From NCBI GenBank assembly GCA_964521935.1, contig CAZFSH010000005.1:1-25439 (forward strand): 25,439 bases of DNA, in the 5' to 3' direction. The position numbers and the translations under genes were made by a program. The notes under the pieces are model-generated. The model was given only the letters and a program-made list of their open reading frames with translations. It was not told where the DNA came from and searched no databases. Positions 1-21,342 of the stretch are shown here, piece after piece (position 1 is the first letter of the stretch; every line of letters begins with the position of its first letter). Source of the stretch: an uncultured Propionivibrio sp. (GTDB lineage: Bacteria; Pseudomonadota; Gammaproteobacteria; Burkholderiales; Rhodocyclaceae).

Positions 1-1472
1 CAGGATTCGTGGGCAAAAAAATGCGCAAAGTTGCGTGCCACCTCAAACATGTCACGCTGGCCGTTAAACACCATGAAGGCCCCGGCTGTGGGCAGGTCTT
101 CAAAGCCGAGGCGGCGATGGAATTCGTGAGCGGCCAGGCAAATGCCGGACGGGCCGGAAATCTGCACCGCCTGGACATCGCTGGCAGCGCCACAATCGGC
201 TAGCACTTGCGCGACGCTGACGCCGTAATCGTATTCGTAAATGCCGGGGCGGGCGCAATCACCGGATACCGAAAGCAGTTTGCTCCCCGCCGATTGCGCC
301 GTGCCGTGCTGTGCATAGGCGGCCCCGCCATCGTGGGCGATCAGGCAGGCGGCGGCGAGGGTTTCGACGTTATTGACCGTCGTTGGCTGATTGAGGTAAC
401 CGGACACGACGGGGAAGGGCGGGCGAATGCGCGGTCGGCCGGGCTTGCCTTCGAGCGACTCGATCAAGGCGGACTCTTCGCCACACACATAAGCGCCCGC
501 GCCGAGGTGAATCTCAATATCGAAACTCAAGCTGCTGCCGAGAATGTTTGCGCCAAGCAAACCTTCGTTGCGCCGTCTCACAGCGACTGACTTTAGGTGG
601 TCGAGCAGGTAGCGATATTCGCCGCGCAAATAGAGCAAGCCGCGGCTAGCACCGATGGCATGGGCGGCTATGGTCATGCCTTCCAGCACCAGATCGGCAT
701 AGCGGGTGAGCAAAACGCGGTCTTTGAAGGTGCCCGGCTCGCCTTCGTCGGCATTGCAGACAACGAAATGGTGAGCGCCTTCTGCGGCTCGGCAGGCGCG
801 CCATTTTTGCGCAGTGGAAAAGCCGGCGCCGCCGCGACCGCGCAGCTTGGCGATCTCGATTTCATTGAGCAAGTCATCCGGCGTCCGGCGTAGTGCGGCG
901 GCCAATGCGGCGCCGGGGGCGAGCGTGTTACCGAGTAGCAAGCCGCTGCGCTGGATGTTGTCGTGAATGGCAAACCAGTCGGCCGGCCACTGCGCGATGG
1001 GGGTTTGCGAACGAATCAGTTCGGCCATCTGGTCGATACGCGCGGCATCCAGCCGAGTGATCGCGCGGCCGTTGACCAAGGCCGCCGGCCCTTGGTCGCA
1101 CATGCCGGTGCAGGATGTCGTGCTCACGCAGACCAAGCCATCTTCCGAGACTTTGCCAGCTTCCAGCCACAGCGACTTGCAGAGCTGTTCGACCAAGGCA
1201 GCGTTGCCGGCCATCTGGTCGGTAATGTTGTTGCTGAACAGTACGCGGTATCGGCCGGCCGGTTGTACGTGCAGAAAGCTGTAAAACTCGGCTGTCGCTT
1301 CAACTTCTGCGCGCGAAAGGCGCAAGGTCTGGGCAACGTGGTTAAGCACGGGAGGCGGCAACCATCCGCCGAGCTCATCCAGCTCTTGGAGTTCGATGAG
1401 TATCTGCAGCAAGTGGCTGGCATCGTGCTGATGCCGACGCAAAATAAGGTCAAGCGCAGTGGTCGCGATCAT
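1..1472 (-). CDS. hoxF: NAD(H)-dependent (group 3d) hydrogenase diaphorase subunit HoxF (NuoE+NuoF-like fusion), 3' end outside the window
   Basis: Not in the ORF track because it has no stop in the window. Hand translation from ATG 1472 is open to the window edge: MIATTALDLILRRH...FYSF...CTGMCDQGP...LRGRGGAGFSTAQKW...VCNADEGEPGTFKDR...GAGAYVCGEESALIESLEGK...NNVET...ISGPSG...FFAHESC. Confidence 0.88.
   Translation of the reverse strand, partial: MIATTALDLILRRHQHDASHLLQILIELQELDELGGWLPPPVLNHVAQTLRLSRAEVEATAEFYSFLHVQPAGRYRVLFSNNITDQMAGNAALVEQLCKSLWLEAGKVSEDGLVCVSTTSCTGMCDQGPAALVNGRAITRLDAARIDQMAELIRSQTPIAQWPADWFAIHDNIQRSGLLLGNTLAPGAALAAALRRTPDDLLNEIEIAKLRGRGGAGFSTAQKWRACRAAEGAHHFVVCNADEGEPGTFKDRVLLTRYADLVLEGMTIAAHAIGASRGLLYLRGEYRYLLDHLKSVAVRRRNEGLLGANILGSSLSFDIEIHLGAGAYVCGEESALIESLEGKPGRPRIRPPFPVVSGYLNQPTTVNNVETLAAACLIAHDGGAAYAQHGTAQSAGSKLLSVSGDCARPGIYEYDYGVSVAQVLADCGAASDVQAVQISGPSGICLAAHEFHRRLGFEDLPTAGAFMVFNGQRDMFEVARNFAHFFAHES
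569..594 (-). repeat. Dispersed 26-bp motif, copy 1 (AAAGTCAGTCGCTGTGAGACGGCGCA on - strand), inside hoxF
   Basis: 25/26 identical to the copy at 4872-4897 and 24/26 to the copy at 14182-14207. Confidence 0.9.
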
Positions 1473-4865: not shown

Positions 4866-4871
4866 ACGGGG

Positions 4872-4897
4872 AAAGTCAGTCGCTGTGGGACGGCGCA
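4872..4897 (+). repeat. Dispersed 26-bp motif, copy 2 (AAAGTCAGTCGCTGTGGGACGGCGCA), overlapping the YhhN stop codon
   Basis: 25/26 identical to copy 1. Confidence 0.9.
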
Positions 4898-5562
4898 CGC
4901 ACGATAGCACTCGCGGCAATCAGCCATTGGCCACCCCAGTAGGTCAGCATGATCGGAAACGCAGCGCCTGTGAGCGGTTGGGCAAAGCGGTTGATGCCGA
5001 TCAAGGTATCGGAAAACGCGAAGAGCAGAGCGCCAGCAAGCGGAAGCCAGCGTGCTGCACGACTAGGACTAGCCGTATGTGAGGGGGAAGGCGCCGCCAC
5101 CGCCGCTGCGCGCCAGAGCATGGCGCCAATGATGCTCATGTAGACAACGACTGGAATGGTCAGCTCGGCGGTTCCCGGTAGCATCAGCTGCAAGGCAAAC
5201 GCCAAGTAGATGACTACCGGCACAGCCAAGACTACGAAGAATGTTGCTTGCCAGCGCCAAAATGCCCAGACATAGAGGCTGTGACCAATGGCAAAGGCGA
5301 GCATGCCCAATACAAACGCACCCGGCGTATTGAGCAACACATCACCCATGGCACCGAAGATCAAACCGACGGCAATGCGTCGCTCTGCGCCCGGTTCTCG
5401 CCAAACCCAGGCCGCCATCGCCAGAACCGGAATGCCCTTGACCACGAACTGGACCGTCGCCAGATCAAGTGCCATGCCAACCAAGTAGATGCAGGCGGTG
5501 AGGCTGCCGATCAAGGTGATGAGGGGCAGGGTGATGGCAGATTTTTCGGCTGTGCTGGTCAT
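4876..5562 (-). CDS. YhhN / lysoplasmalogenase-like integral membrane protein
   Basis: Multi-TM protein with family motifs KGIP, GDVLL, F(A)IGHSLY, GALLFAFSD and TYWGGQ. Confidence 0.85.
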   Translation of the reverse strand: MTSTAEKSAITLPLITLIGSLTACIYLVGMALDLATVQFVVKGIPVLAMAAWVWREPGAERRIAVGLIFGAMGDVLLNTPGAFVLGMLAFAIGHSLYVWAFWRWQATFFVVLAVPVVIYLAFALQLMLPGTAELTIPVVVYMSIIGAMLWRAAAVAAPSPSHTASPSRAARWLPLAGALLFAFSDTLIGINRFAQPLTGAAFPIMLTYWGGQWLIAASAIVRAPSHSD

Positions 5563-6654: not shown

Positions 6655-6753
6655 GAGCAATCTTAAGTGGCTTGTGAAGCAGGTGGAATTCAGAATAGCG
6701 CGGTAATAGTAGCCTGTATGCGCCCATGGACATTTCCTGACTAGAATGGCTTG

Positions 6754-9207
6754 ATGAATTCAGTGAACAGATCTGTCGCAGGGCAGGATAACCAAATGAT
6801 CGGGCGCTTTCAGGTTCGTCGTGAACTGGGGCGTGGTGCGCAGAGTTCGGTGTATCTCGCTTTTGACCCGCAGTTGCAGCGCGAGGTCGCGATCAAAACC
6901 CTGCATTTCGGGCGTCCGGACGAGAAACGTAACAAGGCTTTGCTTGATGAAGCGCGCGCGGTGAGCAATCTTCGCCATCCGAACATTGTGCCGATCTTTG
7001 ATATGGGCGAGGAGGATGGTAACCCTTATCTGGTTTTTGAGTTGGTGCCGGGCCCGAATCTCGATCAGTACCTGAAAAAAGAAGGGCGTTTGTCGGCGGC
7101 AAAAGCGGCGGACATGATGCGACAAATACTCGATGCGCTGGCGCAAGCGCATGAGGACGGAATCATTCATCGCGATTTGAAACCCTCCAACATCCTGATT
7201 GATACCGCCGGCACACCGCGTGTGATGGATTTTGGCATCGCTACCCGGCTCGATCAGATTGATCCGGAGGGAACGGCGCTGGGGCTAACGGGTACGCCTG
7301 CTTATATGCCGCCGGAATACATTGACAAGCAGACGGTCAGTCCCTTGTTTGATGTCTATGCGGCAGGCTTGGTGCTGTACGAAATGGTGACGGGCAAGCG
7401 TGCGGTCACCGGCCAGTCCTTGCCGCAGCTGGCTTATCAAATTGTGAACACACCTGTCGCCCTGCCCGCTGATAGCGGTATTGATGACACGCTGGCCAGC
7501 ATCATCAGTCAAGCCTGTGCCAAAGATCCTTCGATGCGCATTGCGAGTATTGCGCAAATGAAGGAACGCCTGGATGATTACCTGGGCGCCGCCGCGTCAC
7601 CGATTGGTGGTAACGATGTCACAGAAGGCAAGAAACAGTCGACGCTCGATTTTTTGCTTAGGCGTATGCGGCACAAAACCGACTTTCCGGCGCTGTCGGA
7701 TTCGGTCGCCGCAATCAACCGATTGACCAGCTCCGACAAGGAGAGCATCAACAAGCTGTCCAACACCATCCTGAAAGATTTTGGCCTCACCAACAAAATC
7801 ATGCGCTTGGTGAATTCGGCGTTTTTTCGACAAGCGGGTGGCGGTAACATTTCCACGATTTCTCGGGCAGTCATTGTGCTTGGCTTTGATGCCGTACGTA
7901 ATGTGGCGATCACGGTGCTGTTGTTTGAACACCTGCAAGACAAAGCAAACGCTCGCGATCTGAAAGAGGCGTTTTTACGTGCCAATTTGGCTGGCATGCT
8001 GGCACGCGATGCCAGTAAAAAATTTATGGCCAAGGAAGCTGAGCAGGCCTATGTGTGCGCGCTGTTCCATAACTTAGGGCAGCTGCTTGCCCAGTACTAC
8101 TTTCCGGAAGAAGTGCAGGAAATTCGCAAGGTGATGGTATCGAAGTCCTGTACCGAGTCTCAGGCGGCAGTGCATGTGCTGGGGATCAGTTTTTCCGATA
8201 TGGGCATAGGGATCGCCAAGCAATGGGGGTTTCCTCAAGACGTCGTTTCCTCGCTGGTTCCGTTGCCGGCTGGAGCAGTTAGTAAGCCCGGTTCGCATGG
8301 TGAAACCTTGCGCGTGGTTGCCGGCTTTGCCAATGAGTTGTGCGAAGCAATTTCTGGCAATCAGGATCGTGGTCAGTCGGCCTTGGTCCACGCAATTCGC
8401 CAGCGCTTTGCTGGCGCCATGCCCGTCAGCGAGAAGCAGGTCGGTGAAGTGCTGGAAACCGCCTACGCCGAAGTTAAAGAGCTGGCTAGCGTTTTGCATG
8501 TGAACTTGAAGCAGAGCCCGTTTGCGCGCCAGGTAACGAAATGGATTACGCCAACCATCGGTGAGCTCGAGGGTAAAGATAAGCCTGGTGCGACCTTAAG
8601 CGGCGTGGCCAATGGTGGCACGGTGCTGGAAGATTCGCCACTGCTTGATCATAGAGATGAGGACGAGGTTGAGTCGCAAGAAAGTCGCTCTGAACATGCG
8701 CAGTCAACTTTGACTGCGGGTATTCAGGACATCAGTAATTCGCTGGTCGATGACTTTTCGCTGAATGACGTGTTGCGCATCATTCTGGAAACCATGTATC
8801 GCGCCATGGGCTTTGAGCGCGTGTTACTGTCGCTCAAGGACGCCCGCTCGGGGACAATGACTGGGCGTTTTGGCTTTGGCCAGAACATTAACGTGTTGGC
8901 CAAGTCGTTCCGGTTTAACTTGGGCAATGCACCAGACGTATTTCAATTGGCGACGGCTAAAGGAGTCGATATCATTATTACGGATATTGACGACCCCAAG
9001 ATTGCCGACAAAATCCCGTCGTGGTATCGCTCTGCGGTGACGGCAAAAACCTTTGTGCTCTTTCCGCTCACGATCAAAGGGAATCCAATTGCCCTAATTT
9101 ACGCAGACAAAGATAAAGCCAACAGCATTGTGATTCCGGAAAAAGAGCTTACGTTGCTGAAAACTTTGCGTAACCAAGCGGTGTTGGCTATCAAGCAGTC
9201 AATGTAA
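6754..9207 (+). CDS. Hanks-type Ser/Thr protein kinase with HDOD and C-terminal GAF-like domains
   Basis: GRGAQSSV, VAIK, HRDLKPSN, DFG and GTPAYMPPE kinase motifs; HDOD motifs (DFPAL, DFGLTNKIMRLVNS, LGFDAV, LFHNLG); GAF-like C-terminus (GFERV, LFPL, ALIYAD). Confidence 0.88.
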   Translation: MNSVNRSVAGQDNQMIGRFQVRRELGRGAQSSVYLAFDPQLQREVAIKTLHFGRPDEKRNKALLDEARAVSNLRHPNIVPIFDMGEEDGNPYLVFELVPGPNLDQYLKKEGRLSAAKAADMMRQILDALAQAHEDGIIHRDLKPSNILIDTAGTPRVMDFGIATRLDQIDPEGTALGLTGTPAYMPPEYIDKQTVSPLFDVYAAGLVLYEMVTGKRAVTGQSLPQLAYQIVNTPVALPADSGIDDTLASIISQACAKDPSMRIASIAQMKERLDDYLGAAASPIGGNDVTEGKKQSTLDFLLRRMRHKTDFPALSDSVAAINRLTSSDKESINKLSNTILKDFGLTNKIMRLVNSAFFRQAGGGNISTISRAVIVLGFDAVRNVAITVLLFEHLQDKANARDLKEAFLRANLAGMLARDASKKFMAKEAEQAYVCALFHNLGQLLAQYYFPEEVQEIRKVMVSKSCTESQAAVHVLGISFSDMGIGIAKQWGFPQDVVSSLVPLPAGAVSKPGSHGETLRVVAGFANELCEAISGNQDRGQSALVHAIRQRFAGAMPVSEKQVGEVLETAYAEVKELASVLHVNLKQSPFARQVTKWITPTIGELEGKDKPGATLSGVANGGTVLEDSPLLDHRDEDEVESQESRSEHAQSTLTAGIQDISNSLVDDFSLNDVLRIILETMYRAMGFERVLLSLKDARSGTMTGRFGFGQNINVLAKSFRFNLGNAPDVFQLATAKGVDIIITDIDDPKIADKIPSWYRSAVTAKTFVLFPLTIKGNPIALIYADKDKANSIVIPEKELTLLKTLRNQAVLAIKQSM

Positions 9208-9247
9208 TTTGCAGGTGCGTTAGCTCAACTACACTCAAACTTAGCTA

Positions 9248-9273
9248 AAACTCAGTCTCTGTGGCACGGCGCA
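9248..9273 (+). repeat. Dispersed 26-bp motif, copy 3 (AAACTCAGTCTCTGTGGCACGGCGCA), in a convergent intergenic gap
   Basis: 23/26 identical to copy 2. Confidence 0.85.
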
Positions 9274-9324
9274 AACGTCAATCGACACTTGCGCACCTGT
9301 TCAAACGTGCATGAACTTAGCTGC

Positions 9325-9753
9325 CTAGCTGCGAATGTAGTTCTCCAGTTGCTCGATCACAAAGGCTTGTTCGGAGATCGTTTCTTTTACCAAGTCGCCA
9401 ATAGAGACCATGCCAGTCACTGAATCGCCGACCATGACCGGCAGGTGACGAATCCGTTTTTCGGTCATCAAGGCCATGGCTTCGTCGACTGTTTGAGTAG
9501 GTTTGGCGAAAATTACCTTCGCTGTCATGATTTCGCCTACCGTCGTGTCTTTTGACGACTTGCCGTGCAATATGATTTTGCGCGCGTAGTCGCGTTCGCT
9601 GAAGATACCTGCGAGGCGATTTGCCTCCATCACCAGCAAGGCGCCCACGTCATGCTTGGCCATTACTTCCAAGGCGGTGATGACGGAGTCGCCAGGCGCG
9701 ACCGACAGGGGTTTGCGGGGATTGGCGCCGAGTAACTGTTGTAGGGTCTTCAC
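9325..9753 (-). CDS. CBS-pair domain protein
   Basis: Two CBS repeats (VGALLV...GIFSERDY; RIRHLPV...GMVSIGDLVK); GGAGGAG SD upstream of a GTG start. Confidence 0.9.
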   Translation of the reverse strand: MKTLQQLLGANPRKPLSVAPGDSVITALEVMAKHDVGALLVMEANRLAGIFSERDYARKIILHGKSSKDTTVGEIMTAKVIFAKPTQTVDEAMALMTEKRIRHLPVMVGDSVTGMVSIGDLVKETISEQAFVIEQLENYIRS

Positions 9754-14012: not shown

Positions 14013-14088
14013 GCCGCCTTAGCTCAGTTGGTAGAGCACCGCACTTGTAATGCGGGGGTCGTCAGTTCGATTCCGACAGGCGGCACCA
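14013..14088 (+). tRNA. tRNA-Thr (anticodon UGU)
   Basis: 76-nt cloverleaf: GCCGCCT/AGGCGGC acceptor stem, CCGCA-CT-TGT-AA-TGCGG anticodon arm, TTCGATT T-loop, encoded CCA. Confidence 0.97.
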
Positions 14089-14179: not shown

Positions 14180-14181
14180 GA

Positions 14182-14207
14182 AAAGTCAGTTGCTGTGAGA
14201 CGGCGAA
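14182..14207 (+). repeat. Dispersed 26-bp motif, copy 4 (AAAGTCAGTTGCTGTGAGACGGCGAA), between the tRNA terminator and the ssrA promoter
   Basis: 24/26 identical to copy 1. Confidence 0.88.
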
Positions 14208-14229
14208 AATTTTATTTGCTATAGCTTGG

Positions 14230-14258
14230 TTGAATATTCACCAATGCCACCCCATAAT
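14230..14258 (+). promoter_or_regulatory. sigma70 promoter for permuted ssrA
   Basis: TTGAAT-N17-CATAAT directly upstream of the acceptor piece. Confidence 0.7.
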
Positions 14259-14264
14259 GAACGT

Positions 14265-14495
14265 ACGGTCGTAATTCCGGCAAACTGGAAACGTTCTGGA
14301 CGGCGGTTCGATTCCGCCCACCTCCACCACAGGGGGGGTGACCTGGTCTCGACAGGGTGATAGAAGGCGAGCAGGCGGCCCGAGAGGCGACGGACGTAAT
14401 CCGCGCAAATCTATAAACGCAAACGATGAGCGTTTCGCACTGGCCGCTTAAGGCCTGCTGAGGACATAGCCGTCCAATAAACAGAATGGCTATCG
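14265..14495 (+). ncRNA. ssrA: Circularly permuted (two-piece) tmRNA gene; outer ends approximate
   Basis: The T-arm GGCGG-TTCGATT-CCGCC and CACCTCC-A-CCA (14302-14329) come before the 5' acceptor strand GGGGGTG-ACCTGGTCTCGAC (from 14334). G3:U70 Ala identity pair is present. Tag frame 14419-14451 encodes ANDERFALAA*. Confidence 0.93.
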
Positions 14496-14496
14496 G

Positions 14497-14520
14497 AGGG
14501 GACACAGAAATGTGTCCCCT
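14497..14520. terminator. Hairpin between convergent ssrA and ubiG (probable terminator)
   Basis: Perfect 10-bp stem AGGGGACACA/TGTGTCCCCT with a GAAA loop; the U-tract is weak. Confidence 0.7.
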
Positions 14521-14527
14521 TCGTCAT

Positions 14528-17609: not shown

Positions 17610-20240
17610 ATGACCTCATTCGCTAAAGAAACGCTCCCGATCAGCCTGGAAGAGGAGATGCGTCACTCGTACCTGGATTACGCCATGAGCGTGATTGTAG
17701 GACGAGCGCTGCCTGATGTACGCGATGGACTCAAGCCCGTGCATCGGCGAGTCCTCTTTGCCATGCACGAATTGGGTAACGACTGGAATAAAGCCTACAA
17801 AAAATCAGCGCGTATTGTCGGTGACGTGATCGGTAAATATCACCCGCATGGCGATACCGCCGTATATGACACGATTGTCCGTATGGCGCAGGACTTCTCA
17901 CTGCGTTACATGCTGGTTGATGGGCAGGGTAACTTCGGTTCGGTCGATGGTGATAACGCTGCGGCAATGCGATATACCGAGGTGCGCATGGCGCGCATTG
18001 GTCACGAACTCCTTGCCGATATCGACAAGGAAACCTGCGATTTTGGCCCTAACTACGACGGTTCTGAGCAAGAGCCGCTCATCATGCCGGCGCGTATTCC
18101 CAACCTGCTGATTAATGGCTCGTCGGGTATTGCCGTGGGTATGGCGACCAATATTCCCCCGCACAATTTGAATGAAGTGATCGATGGCTGTTTGACCTTG
18201 CTTAACGCGCCCGAAACGACCATCGAAGAGCTGATTGAAATTATTCCGGCGCCAGATTTTCCGACTGCCGCCTTGATTTATGGCACTTCAGGGGTTCGCG
18301 ATGGCTACCTGACCGGCCGTGGGCGCGTCATCATGCGGGCTCGCACGCATATTGAAGACATTGCACGTAGTAATAACCGTCAGGCAATCATCGTCGACGA
18401 ACTGCCTTATCAGGTCAACAAGAAGACCTTGCAGGAAAAAATTGCTGAACTGGTGCGTGACAAGAAGATTGATGGCATTGCGCATATTCAGGATGAGTCC
18501 GATAAGTCCGGTATGCGTTTGGTGATCGAGCTGAAAACGGGTGAAGTTCCTGAAGTCGTGCTTAATCACCTCTATAAACAGACGCAGCTGCAAGATACCT
18601 TTGGTATGAACATGGTGGCGCTGGTTGATGGCCGTCCAAAGCTGCTCAACTTGAAGGAAATGCTCGACTGCTTCTTGGCGCACCGCCGTGAAGTGATTAC
18701 CCGCCGCACGGTGTTTGAGTTGCGCAAGGCGCGGGATCGTGGGCATATTCTTGAAGGCTTGGCGGTTGCGCTGTCGAATGTTGACGAGATCATCGCTCTG
18801 ATCAAAGCCGCGCCAACGCCTGCTGATGCCAAACGTGGCTTGATGGGCCGTACCTGGCGCTCACCGCTGGTCGAAGAAATGCTCAATCGTGCCAGCGCCG
18901 ACAGTTCGCGTCCTGCCGGTTTGGCGCCCGATTTTGGCATGTCCAGCCAAGGCTATTTGCTCTCAGATGTGCAAGCGCAAGCCATTCTTGAGCTACGCTT
19001 GCAGCGCCTGACCGGCCTGGAGCAAGACAAAATCGTTGCCGAATACAAGGAAGTCATGGCGCAGATCGCTGACTTGCTCGATATTCTGGCTCGCCCGGAG
19101 CGCGTGACGGCCATCATCGGCGAAGAGTTGTCGGCCATCAAAGCCCAATACGGCGATGCACGCCGCTCGGAAATCGTTCTCAACACCACCGACATCAATA
19201 TTGAAGACCTGATTGCCCGTGAAGACATGGTAGTGACGTTGTCGCACACTGGCTATATCAAGCGGCAACCTTTGGCTGACTATCGGGCACAACGCCGTGG
19301 TGGCCGCGGCAAGCAGGCGGCTCAGATCAAAGATGATGATTTTGTCGATCGCTTGTTTGTGGCCAATACCCACGATTACATTTTGTGTTTCTCCAGCCGC
19401 GGTCGTGTCTATTGGTTGAAAGTTTACGAGGCGCCGGAAGGCACACGGACCTCACGCGGTAAGCCAATTGTTAACCTCTTCCCATTGGAAGAGGGCGAGA
19501 AGATCACCGCCATTTTGCCCACCGCTACCTTTGATGAAGAGCATTTCATCTTCATGGCGACAGCCATGGGAACGGTGAAAAAGACGGCACTAACGGCATT
19601 TGCCAACCCGCGCAAGGCCGGCATCATTGCCGTTGGCTTGGACGAAGGCGACCATCTGATTGGCGTGGCGATTACCAACGGCAAGTGTGACGTGATGTTG
19701 TTCTCCGACTCGGGTAAAGCTGTGCGCTTTGACGAGGACGATGTGCGCCCGATGGGCCGCGAAGCCAGAGGTGTACGCGGCATGATGCTTGAAGATGGCC
19801 AGCGCGTTATTTCCATGCTCGTCGCCGATAGCGAAAACTATTCGGTGCTGACCGCCGTAGAAAATGGTTATGGCAAACGTACCCCCATTGCCGAATATAC
19901 CCGCCACGGCCGTGGTACCAAGGGCATGATCGCTATCCAGACCTCCGAGCGTAATGGCCGTGTGATTGGTGCGGTATTGGCTGGGCAGGGCGATACCCGT
20001 GAGGAAATCATGCTGATTTCTACCGGTGGTGTATTGATCCGTACGCGTGTTGCTGACATTCGTGAAATGAGCCGTTCGACACAAGGTGTGCGTCTGATTA
20101 ATTTGGATGAAGGCACCACGCTGGCGGGTTTGGAAAAAGTCGTCGAGACGGAAGAAGAAGTCTTGAATGACGACGAGATTGATAGCGAAATCAGCCCAGA
20201 CTCATCCGGCGAGGGCTCCGCAGCGGACGGTGAGGCGTGA
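17610..20240 (+). CDS. gyrA: DNA gyrase subunit A
   Basis: [15 protein letters not shown] catalytic Tyr, GyrA-box QRRGGRG, beta-pinwheel repeats, acidic tail. Confidence 0.99.
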
Positions 20241-20250
20241 AAGTTCACCT

Positions 20251-21342
20251 ATGACGCGCGCCTTTAATTTCAGCGCCGGACCGGCGGCGCTGCCCGAGGA
20301 AGTCTTGCGTCAGGCTGCAGACGAAATGCTTGACTGGCATGGCTCGGGTATGTCGGTGATGGAAATGAGTCACCGGGGTAAAGAGTTCATGAGCATCGCG
20401 GAGGCGGCCGAGCGTGACCTGCGCGAGTTGCTGGCTGTGCCCGCCAACTACAAAATTCTGTTTATGCAGGGCGGGGCGATTGCCGCCAATGCCATTATTC
20501 CGCTGAACTTGTTGGGTGATAAGGATGAAGCCGATTATGTGATTACCGGCTCATGGTCGGCCAAATCGTTCAAGGAAGCCAAGAAGTACTGCACGCCCTA
20601 TATTTCGGGCGGCACGCTCGCGGGTCCCTATGGCGCCGTGCCACAGCAGCTGACTTTTTCCGCTGATCCGGCTTACCTGTTTATTTGCACCAACGAAACC
20701 ATTGACGGGGTCGAATACAACGAATTGCCCGACCTCGCTGCCATGGGGCGCGACGATTTGCCCTTGGTGGCCGATGTGTCCTCGCACATTTTGTCCCGGG
20801 TGATCGATGTGTCGCGTTATGGCCTGATTTTTGGTGGTGCGCAAAAAAATATCGGCCCCGCTGGTTTGACGCTGATGATCGTGCGCGATGATTTGCTTGA
20901 TCGTGCTTTGCCGATATGCCCGTCAGCGTTCGAGTTCAAGACCGTGGCGGCGAATAATTCGATGTACAACACCCCGCCTACCTATGGTATTTACATTGCG
21001 GGCTTGGTGTTTCAATGGCTCAAGCGTCAAGGTGGTCTGGCCGCTATCGAGGCTCAAAACATCGCCAAGGCTGAGCTGCTGTACCAGCGTATTGACGCCA
21101 ATGAGTTTTATGAAAATCGGGTGGAAAAACCCTATCGCTCGCGCATGAACGTACCATTTTTCCTGCGTGACGAGTCCTTGAATGAGGCGTTTTTAGCGGA
21201 CGCCAAAGAGGCTGGTCTACTGCAGCTCAAAGGGCATAAATCGGTGGGTGGTATGCGCGCTTCGATCTACAACGCGATGCCCCTCGCCGGTGTGCAGGCC
21301 TTAGTCGATTACATGACGGAGTTTGAACGCACTCATGGCTAA
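20251..21342 (+). CDS. serC: Phosphoserine aminotransferase
   Basis: [24 protein letters not shown]-lysine, [21 protein letters not shown]; ATG at 20251. Confidence 0.97.
20632..20657 (-). repeat. Dispersed 26-bp motif, copy 5 (AAAGTCAGCTGCTGTGGCACGGCGCC on - strand), inside serC
   Basis: 22/26 identical to copy 2; all 18 invariant positions are conserved. Confidence 0.82.

Follow-up and report, generated by a model that had tools for sequence, protein, structure and literature searches.

A dispersed bipartite 26-nt word with species dialects in Propionivibrio and other Rhodocyclaceae: a putative DNA-uptake-signal-like self tag

The locus described here raises the question of why one short DNA word recurs within a single stretch of sequence, being read in a different frame in each of the genes that hold it. 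The stretch (hereafter the window) comprises 25,439 nt of an uncultured Propionivibrio sp. and corresponds to contig C5 of the genome referred to here as G000 (2.74 Mb in 351 contigs, 83% complete, 57.7% GC). A sequence-only reading of the window had proposed that (i) copies of the word lie in three genes (hoxF, yhhN and serC) in three frames, (ii) the hoxF copy is spelled with the rare codons CTA, TCA and AGA, (iii) a shared peptide cannot explain the repeat, and (iv) selection therefore acts on the DNA itself, the uptake sequences of Pasteurellaceae (USS) and Neisseriaceae (DUS) likewise accumulating at permissive coding positions.

The 25-mer at positions 570-594 (+) of the window is repeated at 4872-4896 (-) with one mismatch and at 14182-14206 (-) with two mismatches, and no match to it was obtained in 100 dinucleotide shuffles. 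A repeat search identified two further, more diverged copies at 9248-9274 (-) and 20633-20658 (+). Using a position matrix calculated over the genome copies, the word was defined as GCGCCGT[C/G][C/T]CACAGCG[A/G]CTGACTTTT, which is 26 nt long and of which the window holds five copies, against none in shuffled sequences. The information in the matrix drops to background at both edges of the word, the flanking sequences being unrelated and none of them conserved; the total of approximately 40 bits is inflated by the way in which the copies were selected. Three positions of the word are variable, two of them by transition (C/T and A/G) and one, position 8, by transversion (C/G).

Three of the five copies are associated with genes. 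The first (570-595, +) lies within a HoxF-like NuoE/NuoF fusion gene (3-1478, -; PF01257 and PF01512; truncated by the start of the window), where it is read from the opposite strand in the codons CTA AAG TCA GTC GCT GTG AGA CGG CGC (LKSVAVRRR). The second (4871-4896, -) forms the 3' end of yhhN, a YhhN-family gene (4876-5562, -; PF07947), encoding APSHSD and providing the TGA stop codon at 4876-4878; the protein ends in IVRAPSHSD, and in the alignment of orthologues the copy corresponds to a six-residue C-terminal extension. The fifth copy (20633-20658, +) is located within serC, encoding phosphoserine aminotransferase (20167-21342, +; NF003764 SerC), and is read in sense as GGC GCC GTG CCA CAG CAG CTG ACT TTT (GAVPQQLTF) in a variable loop that contains a two-codon gap in the orthologue alignment. 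Since the family match of this gene begins only at residue 29, its true start is probably later. The two remaining copies are intergenic: the third (9247-9272, -; four mismatches) lies between a Ser/Thr kinase gene (6751-9207) and a small ORF (9325-9753), and the fourth (14181-14206, -) between the genes for tRNA-Thr (14013-14088) and tmRNA (14216-14526; Rfam beta_tmRNA), ending approximately 10 nt upstream of the tmRNA 5' end. The kinase gene itself encodes an 818-aa protein in which the kinase domain spans residues 16-281 and the long C-terminal portion is uncharacterised. The three genes, the three frames and the translations proposed initially were thus confirmed exactly. The genome's own codon usage likewise confirmed the second claim: CTA accounts for 4.1% of leucine, TCA for 10% of serine and AGA for 1.2% of arginine codons in the whole genome, and the HoxF copy therefore spells the word with rare codons.

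Genome-wide searches of G000 retrieved 144 exact matches to the degenerate 25-mer (0 for the reversed-pattern control), 375 copies of the bipartite form CGCCGT-N10-CTGACTTT, and 487 copies of the 26-mer at up to four mismatches, which amounts to one copy per 5-6 kb. Placement of the 487 copies was based on gene calls from a crude codon log-odds model covering 92% of the genome. By these calls, 148 copies (30%) are intergenic, compared with approximately 8% of the genome being intergenic, 63 (13%) extend across a gene end and 276 (57%) are intragenic; the density of intergenic copies peaks between convergent genes. The intragenic copies use all five stop-free frames and never the frame that holds the TGA, giving the peptides KVSRCGTA (103 copies), AVPQRLTF (76), RRxTATDF (60), KSVAVGRR (27) and KSQSLWDG (10), and are oriented almost equally relative to the gene (136 sense, 140 antisense). 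The TGA within the word serves as stop codon of 29 genes, among them yhhN. Use of five frames together with an intergenic share of 30% upheld the claim that a shared peptide cannot explain the repeat.

Copies in G000 are at least 204 nt apart, and neither inverted-repeat pairs nor terminator hairpins were found among them. They are spread more evenly than expected at random, being under-dispersed relative to a Poisson distribution in 10-kb bins (mean 1.82, variance 0.93), and 73 contigs lack a site where 111 were expected; this evenness was not significant in the samples from two other carriers, G002 and G014, and is not relied on here. No strand polarity was detected in G000, in which adjacent copies have the same orientation in 79 cases and different orientations in 61, and copy orientation showed no link to GC skew (178 of 375 agree). 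In the complete genome G014, the initial 400 kb hold 28 copies in forward and 25 in reverse orientation and show no replichore polarity, and the carriers G014 (231/231) and G066 (270/267) are strand-balanced. The 20 contigs of G002 contain 401 forward and 309 reverse matches, which may reflect contig orientation and a mild bias.

Copies of the word arise by point substitution and not by insertion. When the HoxF copy is aligned with four orthologues, each of its codons has a counterpart, the frame is kept and there is no indel, and many other orthologous motif sites align free of gaps. The intragenic copies sit at poorly conserved, permissive protein positions, amino acid identity in the motif regions being 0.41 compared with 0.69 for the whole protein in G002, and 0.27 compared with 0.61 in G014. 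The density of the word in G000 also correlates with GC content (Spearman 0.30, p = 1e-7): the 5% of 5-kb intervals with the lowest GC contain 0.043 sites/kb, a fourfold reduction, compared with 0.16-0.25 sites/kb in intervals outside the lowest GC decile. In the G014 sample, the longest stretch devoid of the word corresponds to a cluster of 28 kb for polysaccharide synthesis, with a GC content of 59.5%, against 66.7% overall.

The taxonomic distribution of the word was determined in a carrier scan of one genome per species and in a sample of 201 genomes of the family. The strict pattern has no copies in 40 relatives, and the motif could on this basis have been regarded as species-specific; this was rejected when looser patterns and de novo k-mer counts revealed related dialects. 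In the scan of one genome per species, a looser form of the word was found in many metagenome-assembled genomes (MAGs) of Rhodocyclaceae and Rhodocyclales and in Ca. Desulfobacillus denitrificans (AP021857.1), in which the bipartite form is present in 433 copies; the named MAGs among the carriers share only about 70% identity with G000. Within the family sample, the pattern CGCCGT-N10-CYGACTT occurs in at least 50 copies in 18 of the 201 genomes (controls 0-4), and the left half alone adds one further carrier, G001 (625 copies, control 56), so that 19 of the 201 genomes, from approximately 11 of the 89 genera, carry the word. De novo k-mer counts gave the dialect AATCGCCGT..C.CCAGCGCCGACTTGCGGAA for G002 (67 copies in 400 kb) and CGCCGT..C.CCACSACTGTAGTTT, i.e., CGCCGT..C.CCAC[C/G]ACTGTAGTTT, for G001 (52 copies in 266 kb). 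The three species of the same genus (G000, G001 and G002) have in common the left half CGCCGT and the spacing and differ in the right half; in G014, the central part of the motif is almost unconstrained.

When the coding sites of G000 were mapped onto their orthologues in the genome samples, the same codons were found to be spelled in the dialect of the species compared; this was the case for about 9 of 15 comparable sites in G002, 4-5 of 13 in G001 and 3 of about 24 in G014. At the HoxF site the same nine codons spell the dialects of G000, G002 and G014 in the three genomes, giving LKSVAVRRR, LKSALARRR and LKSVLAGRR, respectively, with the residues SVAV, SALA and SVLA following the dialect. 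HoxF orthologues from motif-free taxa carrying the same residues and codons would have refuted the proposal of selection on the DNA; the orthologues were found to encode a similar peptide with different codons, each in its own dialect, and the refutation failed. One correction to the comparison originally envisaged is required, namely that the same-genus genomes compared are not motif-free taxa, each having its own dialect. The HoxF site of G003 holds a copy one mismatch from the G002 spelling. A separate observation concerns yhhN in the same genome (G003:C121; L062), where an own-dialect copy (ATCGCCGTATCGCCAGCGCCGACT) is found approximately 20 nt past the stop codon that the G000 copy overlaps.

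Rhodocyclaceae bacterium QR_Bin.30 (JADFDU01; L001, L007, L016, L020) uses the same spelling as G000, CGCCGT..CACAGCGRCTGACTTT, at only approximately 70% nucleotide identity, and dialect therefore does not simply track relatedness. Small clusters of copies were observed in two genomes otherwise lacking the word: in G121 (C1:911240-920848), 10 kb contain five matches to the left half, and in G094 (C104) three full G002-type copies lie within 6 kb. These clusters could possibly represent DNA imported from a carrier or contamination of the bins. Viral contigs yielded only single matches to the bipartite pattern, and none of the 81 matches inspected had a motif-like middle and flanks, which is the level expected by chance.

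On balance, and by a modest margin, we favor the interpretation of the word as a DNA-uptake-signal-like 'self' tag that is spread by biased uptake and recombination; the preference in uptake, the protein reading the word and the recombination step are all inferred. Demonstrated here are the over-representation of the word, its sharp edges, its neutrality of orientation, coding in multiple frames, origin by substitution, permissive placement, depletion from atypical DNA and dialects at conserved positions. All of these properties other than the sharp edges are ones described for DUS and USS, and biased uptake followed by recombination is thus the most likely mechanism. The proposal that selection acts on the DNA, in the manner of USS and DUS, is accordingly supported, the analogy fitting all features that can be computed, although uptake itself has not been shown.

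The putative mechanism would consist of four steps: (i) a sequence-specific part of the competence or type IV pilus machinery would bind double-stranded DNA bearing the word, (ii) such DNA would be preferentially imported and then recombined into the chromosome, (iii) substitutions that create or improve the word would spread in the population by molecular drive, and (iv) selection on proteins would limit the word to harmless places, i.e., the 3' ends of genes, poorly conserved loops and the five stop-free frames. Drift in the specificity of the reader would then lead to existing sites being respelled in place and hence to species-specific dialects at conserved positions.

Genes for ComEC, a ComEA-like protein, secretins and pilins were identified in G000. 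Competence genes are near-universal in bacteria and no proof of uptake. The ComP_DUS family (PF16732) was considered as a candidate reader; it is near-universal in the family, being present in 182 of the 201 genomes with or without the motif, and does not track the word. It was not found in the 83%-complete assembly of G000, whose pilin genes are fragmentary. A very short prepilin-type gene of G000 (C273:102-425), encoding approximately 50 residues after G|F(T/S)LIE, is situated beside two large ORFs; it resembles short pilins that have been reported in Azoarcus.

The DUS of Neisseriaceae (AT-GCCGTCTGAA and dialect forms, with the minor pilin ComP as reader) resembles the word in being non-palindromic, in excess genome-wide and present in both orientations, in occurring within genes in several frames, in its enrichment at gene ends and in having lineage-specific dialects at conserved positions; the carriers of both are betaproteobacteria. 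The DUS core begins with the seven bases GCCGTCT, which are also present in the left half of the word; we regard this as a resemblance only. The USS of Pasteurellaceae, for which the minor pilin ComN is the predicted receptor, consists of a 9-nt core within a motif of approximately 30 bp (PMC12616744). Like the word, it extends over a considerable length, is found mostly within genes, occupies poorly conserved protein positions and arises by substitution. For H. influenzae, DNA recovered after uptake has been sequenced (PMC7811141). The two are unrelated in sequence and differ in architecture, the word being composed of two GC-rich conserved blocks and the USS of a core and AT tracts.

Several points speak against the uptake reading. 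The carriers are all uncultured or enrichment organisms, and for none of them are data on uptake or transformation available; the receptor of the word is unidentified, and neither uptake bias nor the function of the word has been tested. At 24-26 nt the bipartite word is far longer than DUS (10-12 nt) and than the cores of DUS and USS (9-12 nt). It is also less dense than either, DUS and USS occurring at approximately one per kb, and it differs from DUS in lacking inverted-repeat pairs and terminator hairpins and in that its CTG core is not invariant (CCG in G002).

The most serious rival, which remains possible, is that the word is bound within the cell by a protein that recognises this DNA sequence specifically, for example one with a role in organising the nucleoid, in marking the chromosome or in the self/non-self discrimination of a defence or repair system, with each site being under selection. 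Two conserved halves at fixed spacing (CGCCGT-N10-CYGACTT) would suit a two-domain or dimeric binder, the copies in G000 are more even than random both in 10-kb bins and in the number of site-free contigs, and the terminator pairs known from DUS are missing. Against this explanation, regional or replichore bias is absent, the evenness of the copies does not reach significance in G002 or G014, and approximately 40 bits is far above the specificity that a binding site needs. In addition, rapid respelling of hundreds of sites within a genus is so far known only for uptake sequences, and as any one of the roughly 500 sites is dispensable by itself, it would be under weak selection only. The over-represented oligomers Chi and KOPS are likewise tolerated within genes, but they are 8-mers with a strong replichore skew, whereas the word has no polarity.

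A second rival would retain the self tag but have it read or written by base pairing with a nucleic-acid guide or template, through guided recognition or templated gene conversion, and not by a pilin; mutation of the guide would give rise to a new dialect. We regard this as unlikely, without being able to exclude it. Pairing over the length of a guide would fit a word of 24-26 nt that is sharply bounded and has been respelled in place, and in concert, at many sites; transitions, moreover, account for two of the three variable positions. Arguing against it, no guide or template locus was found (no systematic search was made), the C/G variation at position 8 is a transversion, and the nearly free middle in G014 looks like bipartite reading of the protein type. 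To our knowledge, no system with guide- or template-read genome-wide words has been described.

That the word is an inserted miniature mobile element or a REP/MITE-like repeat is very unlikely and already contradicted. High copy number, dispersal and intergenic enrichment would fit such an element. However, the HoxF copy is in frame and free of indels relative to four orthologues, and a 26-nt insertion, not being a multiple of three, would cause a frameshift, yet the genes that hold the 276 intragenic copies are open. Conserved flanks, terminal repeats and duplications are all absent, and neither an Rfam family nor an RNA fold was found at the motif (fold z-scores approximately 0, ranging from -0.3 to 1.2). 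REP elements and the NTS/SRM repeats of Neisseria, which are read by Ssn nucleases and have been linked to transformation (PMC11893778), likewise number hundreds of copies scattered over the genome. They are palindromes that form hairpins and lie between genes, whereas the word has neither dyad symmetry nor a fold and is 57% intragenic. Identity with Ssn/NTS-type repeats was considered and rejected, as those are hairpin repeats (PMC11893778). The weakest alternative, a recurrent peptide or a transcript-level RNA signal, can draw on the recurrence of some peptides (e.g., SAVPQRLTF, 12 times) but is all but excluded, being contradicted at the peptide and the RNA level alike by the frame, orientation and intergenic counts given above and by the rare codons that spell the word.

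No paper describing the motif, and none linking uptake sequences to Rhodocyclaceae or their genera, was found in the literature searched; the right-half string retrieved only unrelated titles among the small fraction of results that was inspected. The 2025 papers found treat sequence-specific DNA uptake only in Neisseriaceae and Pasteurellaceae (bioRxiv 10.1101/2025.10.24.684340). New here are the series of three dialects in one genus, the HoxF site in three spellings, the genome-wide frame counts, and the observation that PF16732 does not separate carriers from non-carriers.

Should the word be something other than an uptake signal, its presence points to a system, as yet unknown, that reads DNA across the genome. 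Reading or rewriting through a guide or template would account for a length similar to that of guides, for the sharply defined edges and for the way in which hundreds of fixed sites are respelled in place, and in concert, from one species to another within a genus. If the favored interpretation of an uptake-signal-like self tag is true, the environmental and wastewater Rhodocyclaceae would represent a third uptake-sequence lineage, with a much longer, bipartite word and a fast turnover of dialects within a genus, and the phenomenon of uptake sequences would be broadened. Such words would be shown to reshape proteins, as the HoxF residues follow the dialect, and the Rhodocyclaceae would offer a natural series for studying the co-evolution of a reader with hundreds of genomic sites.
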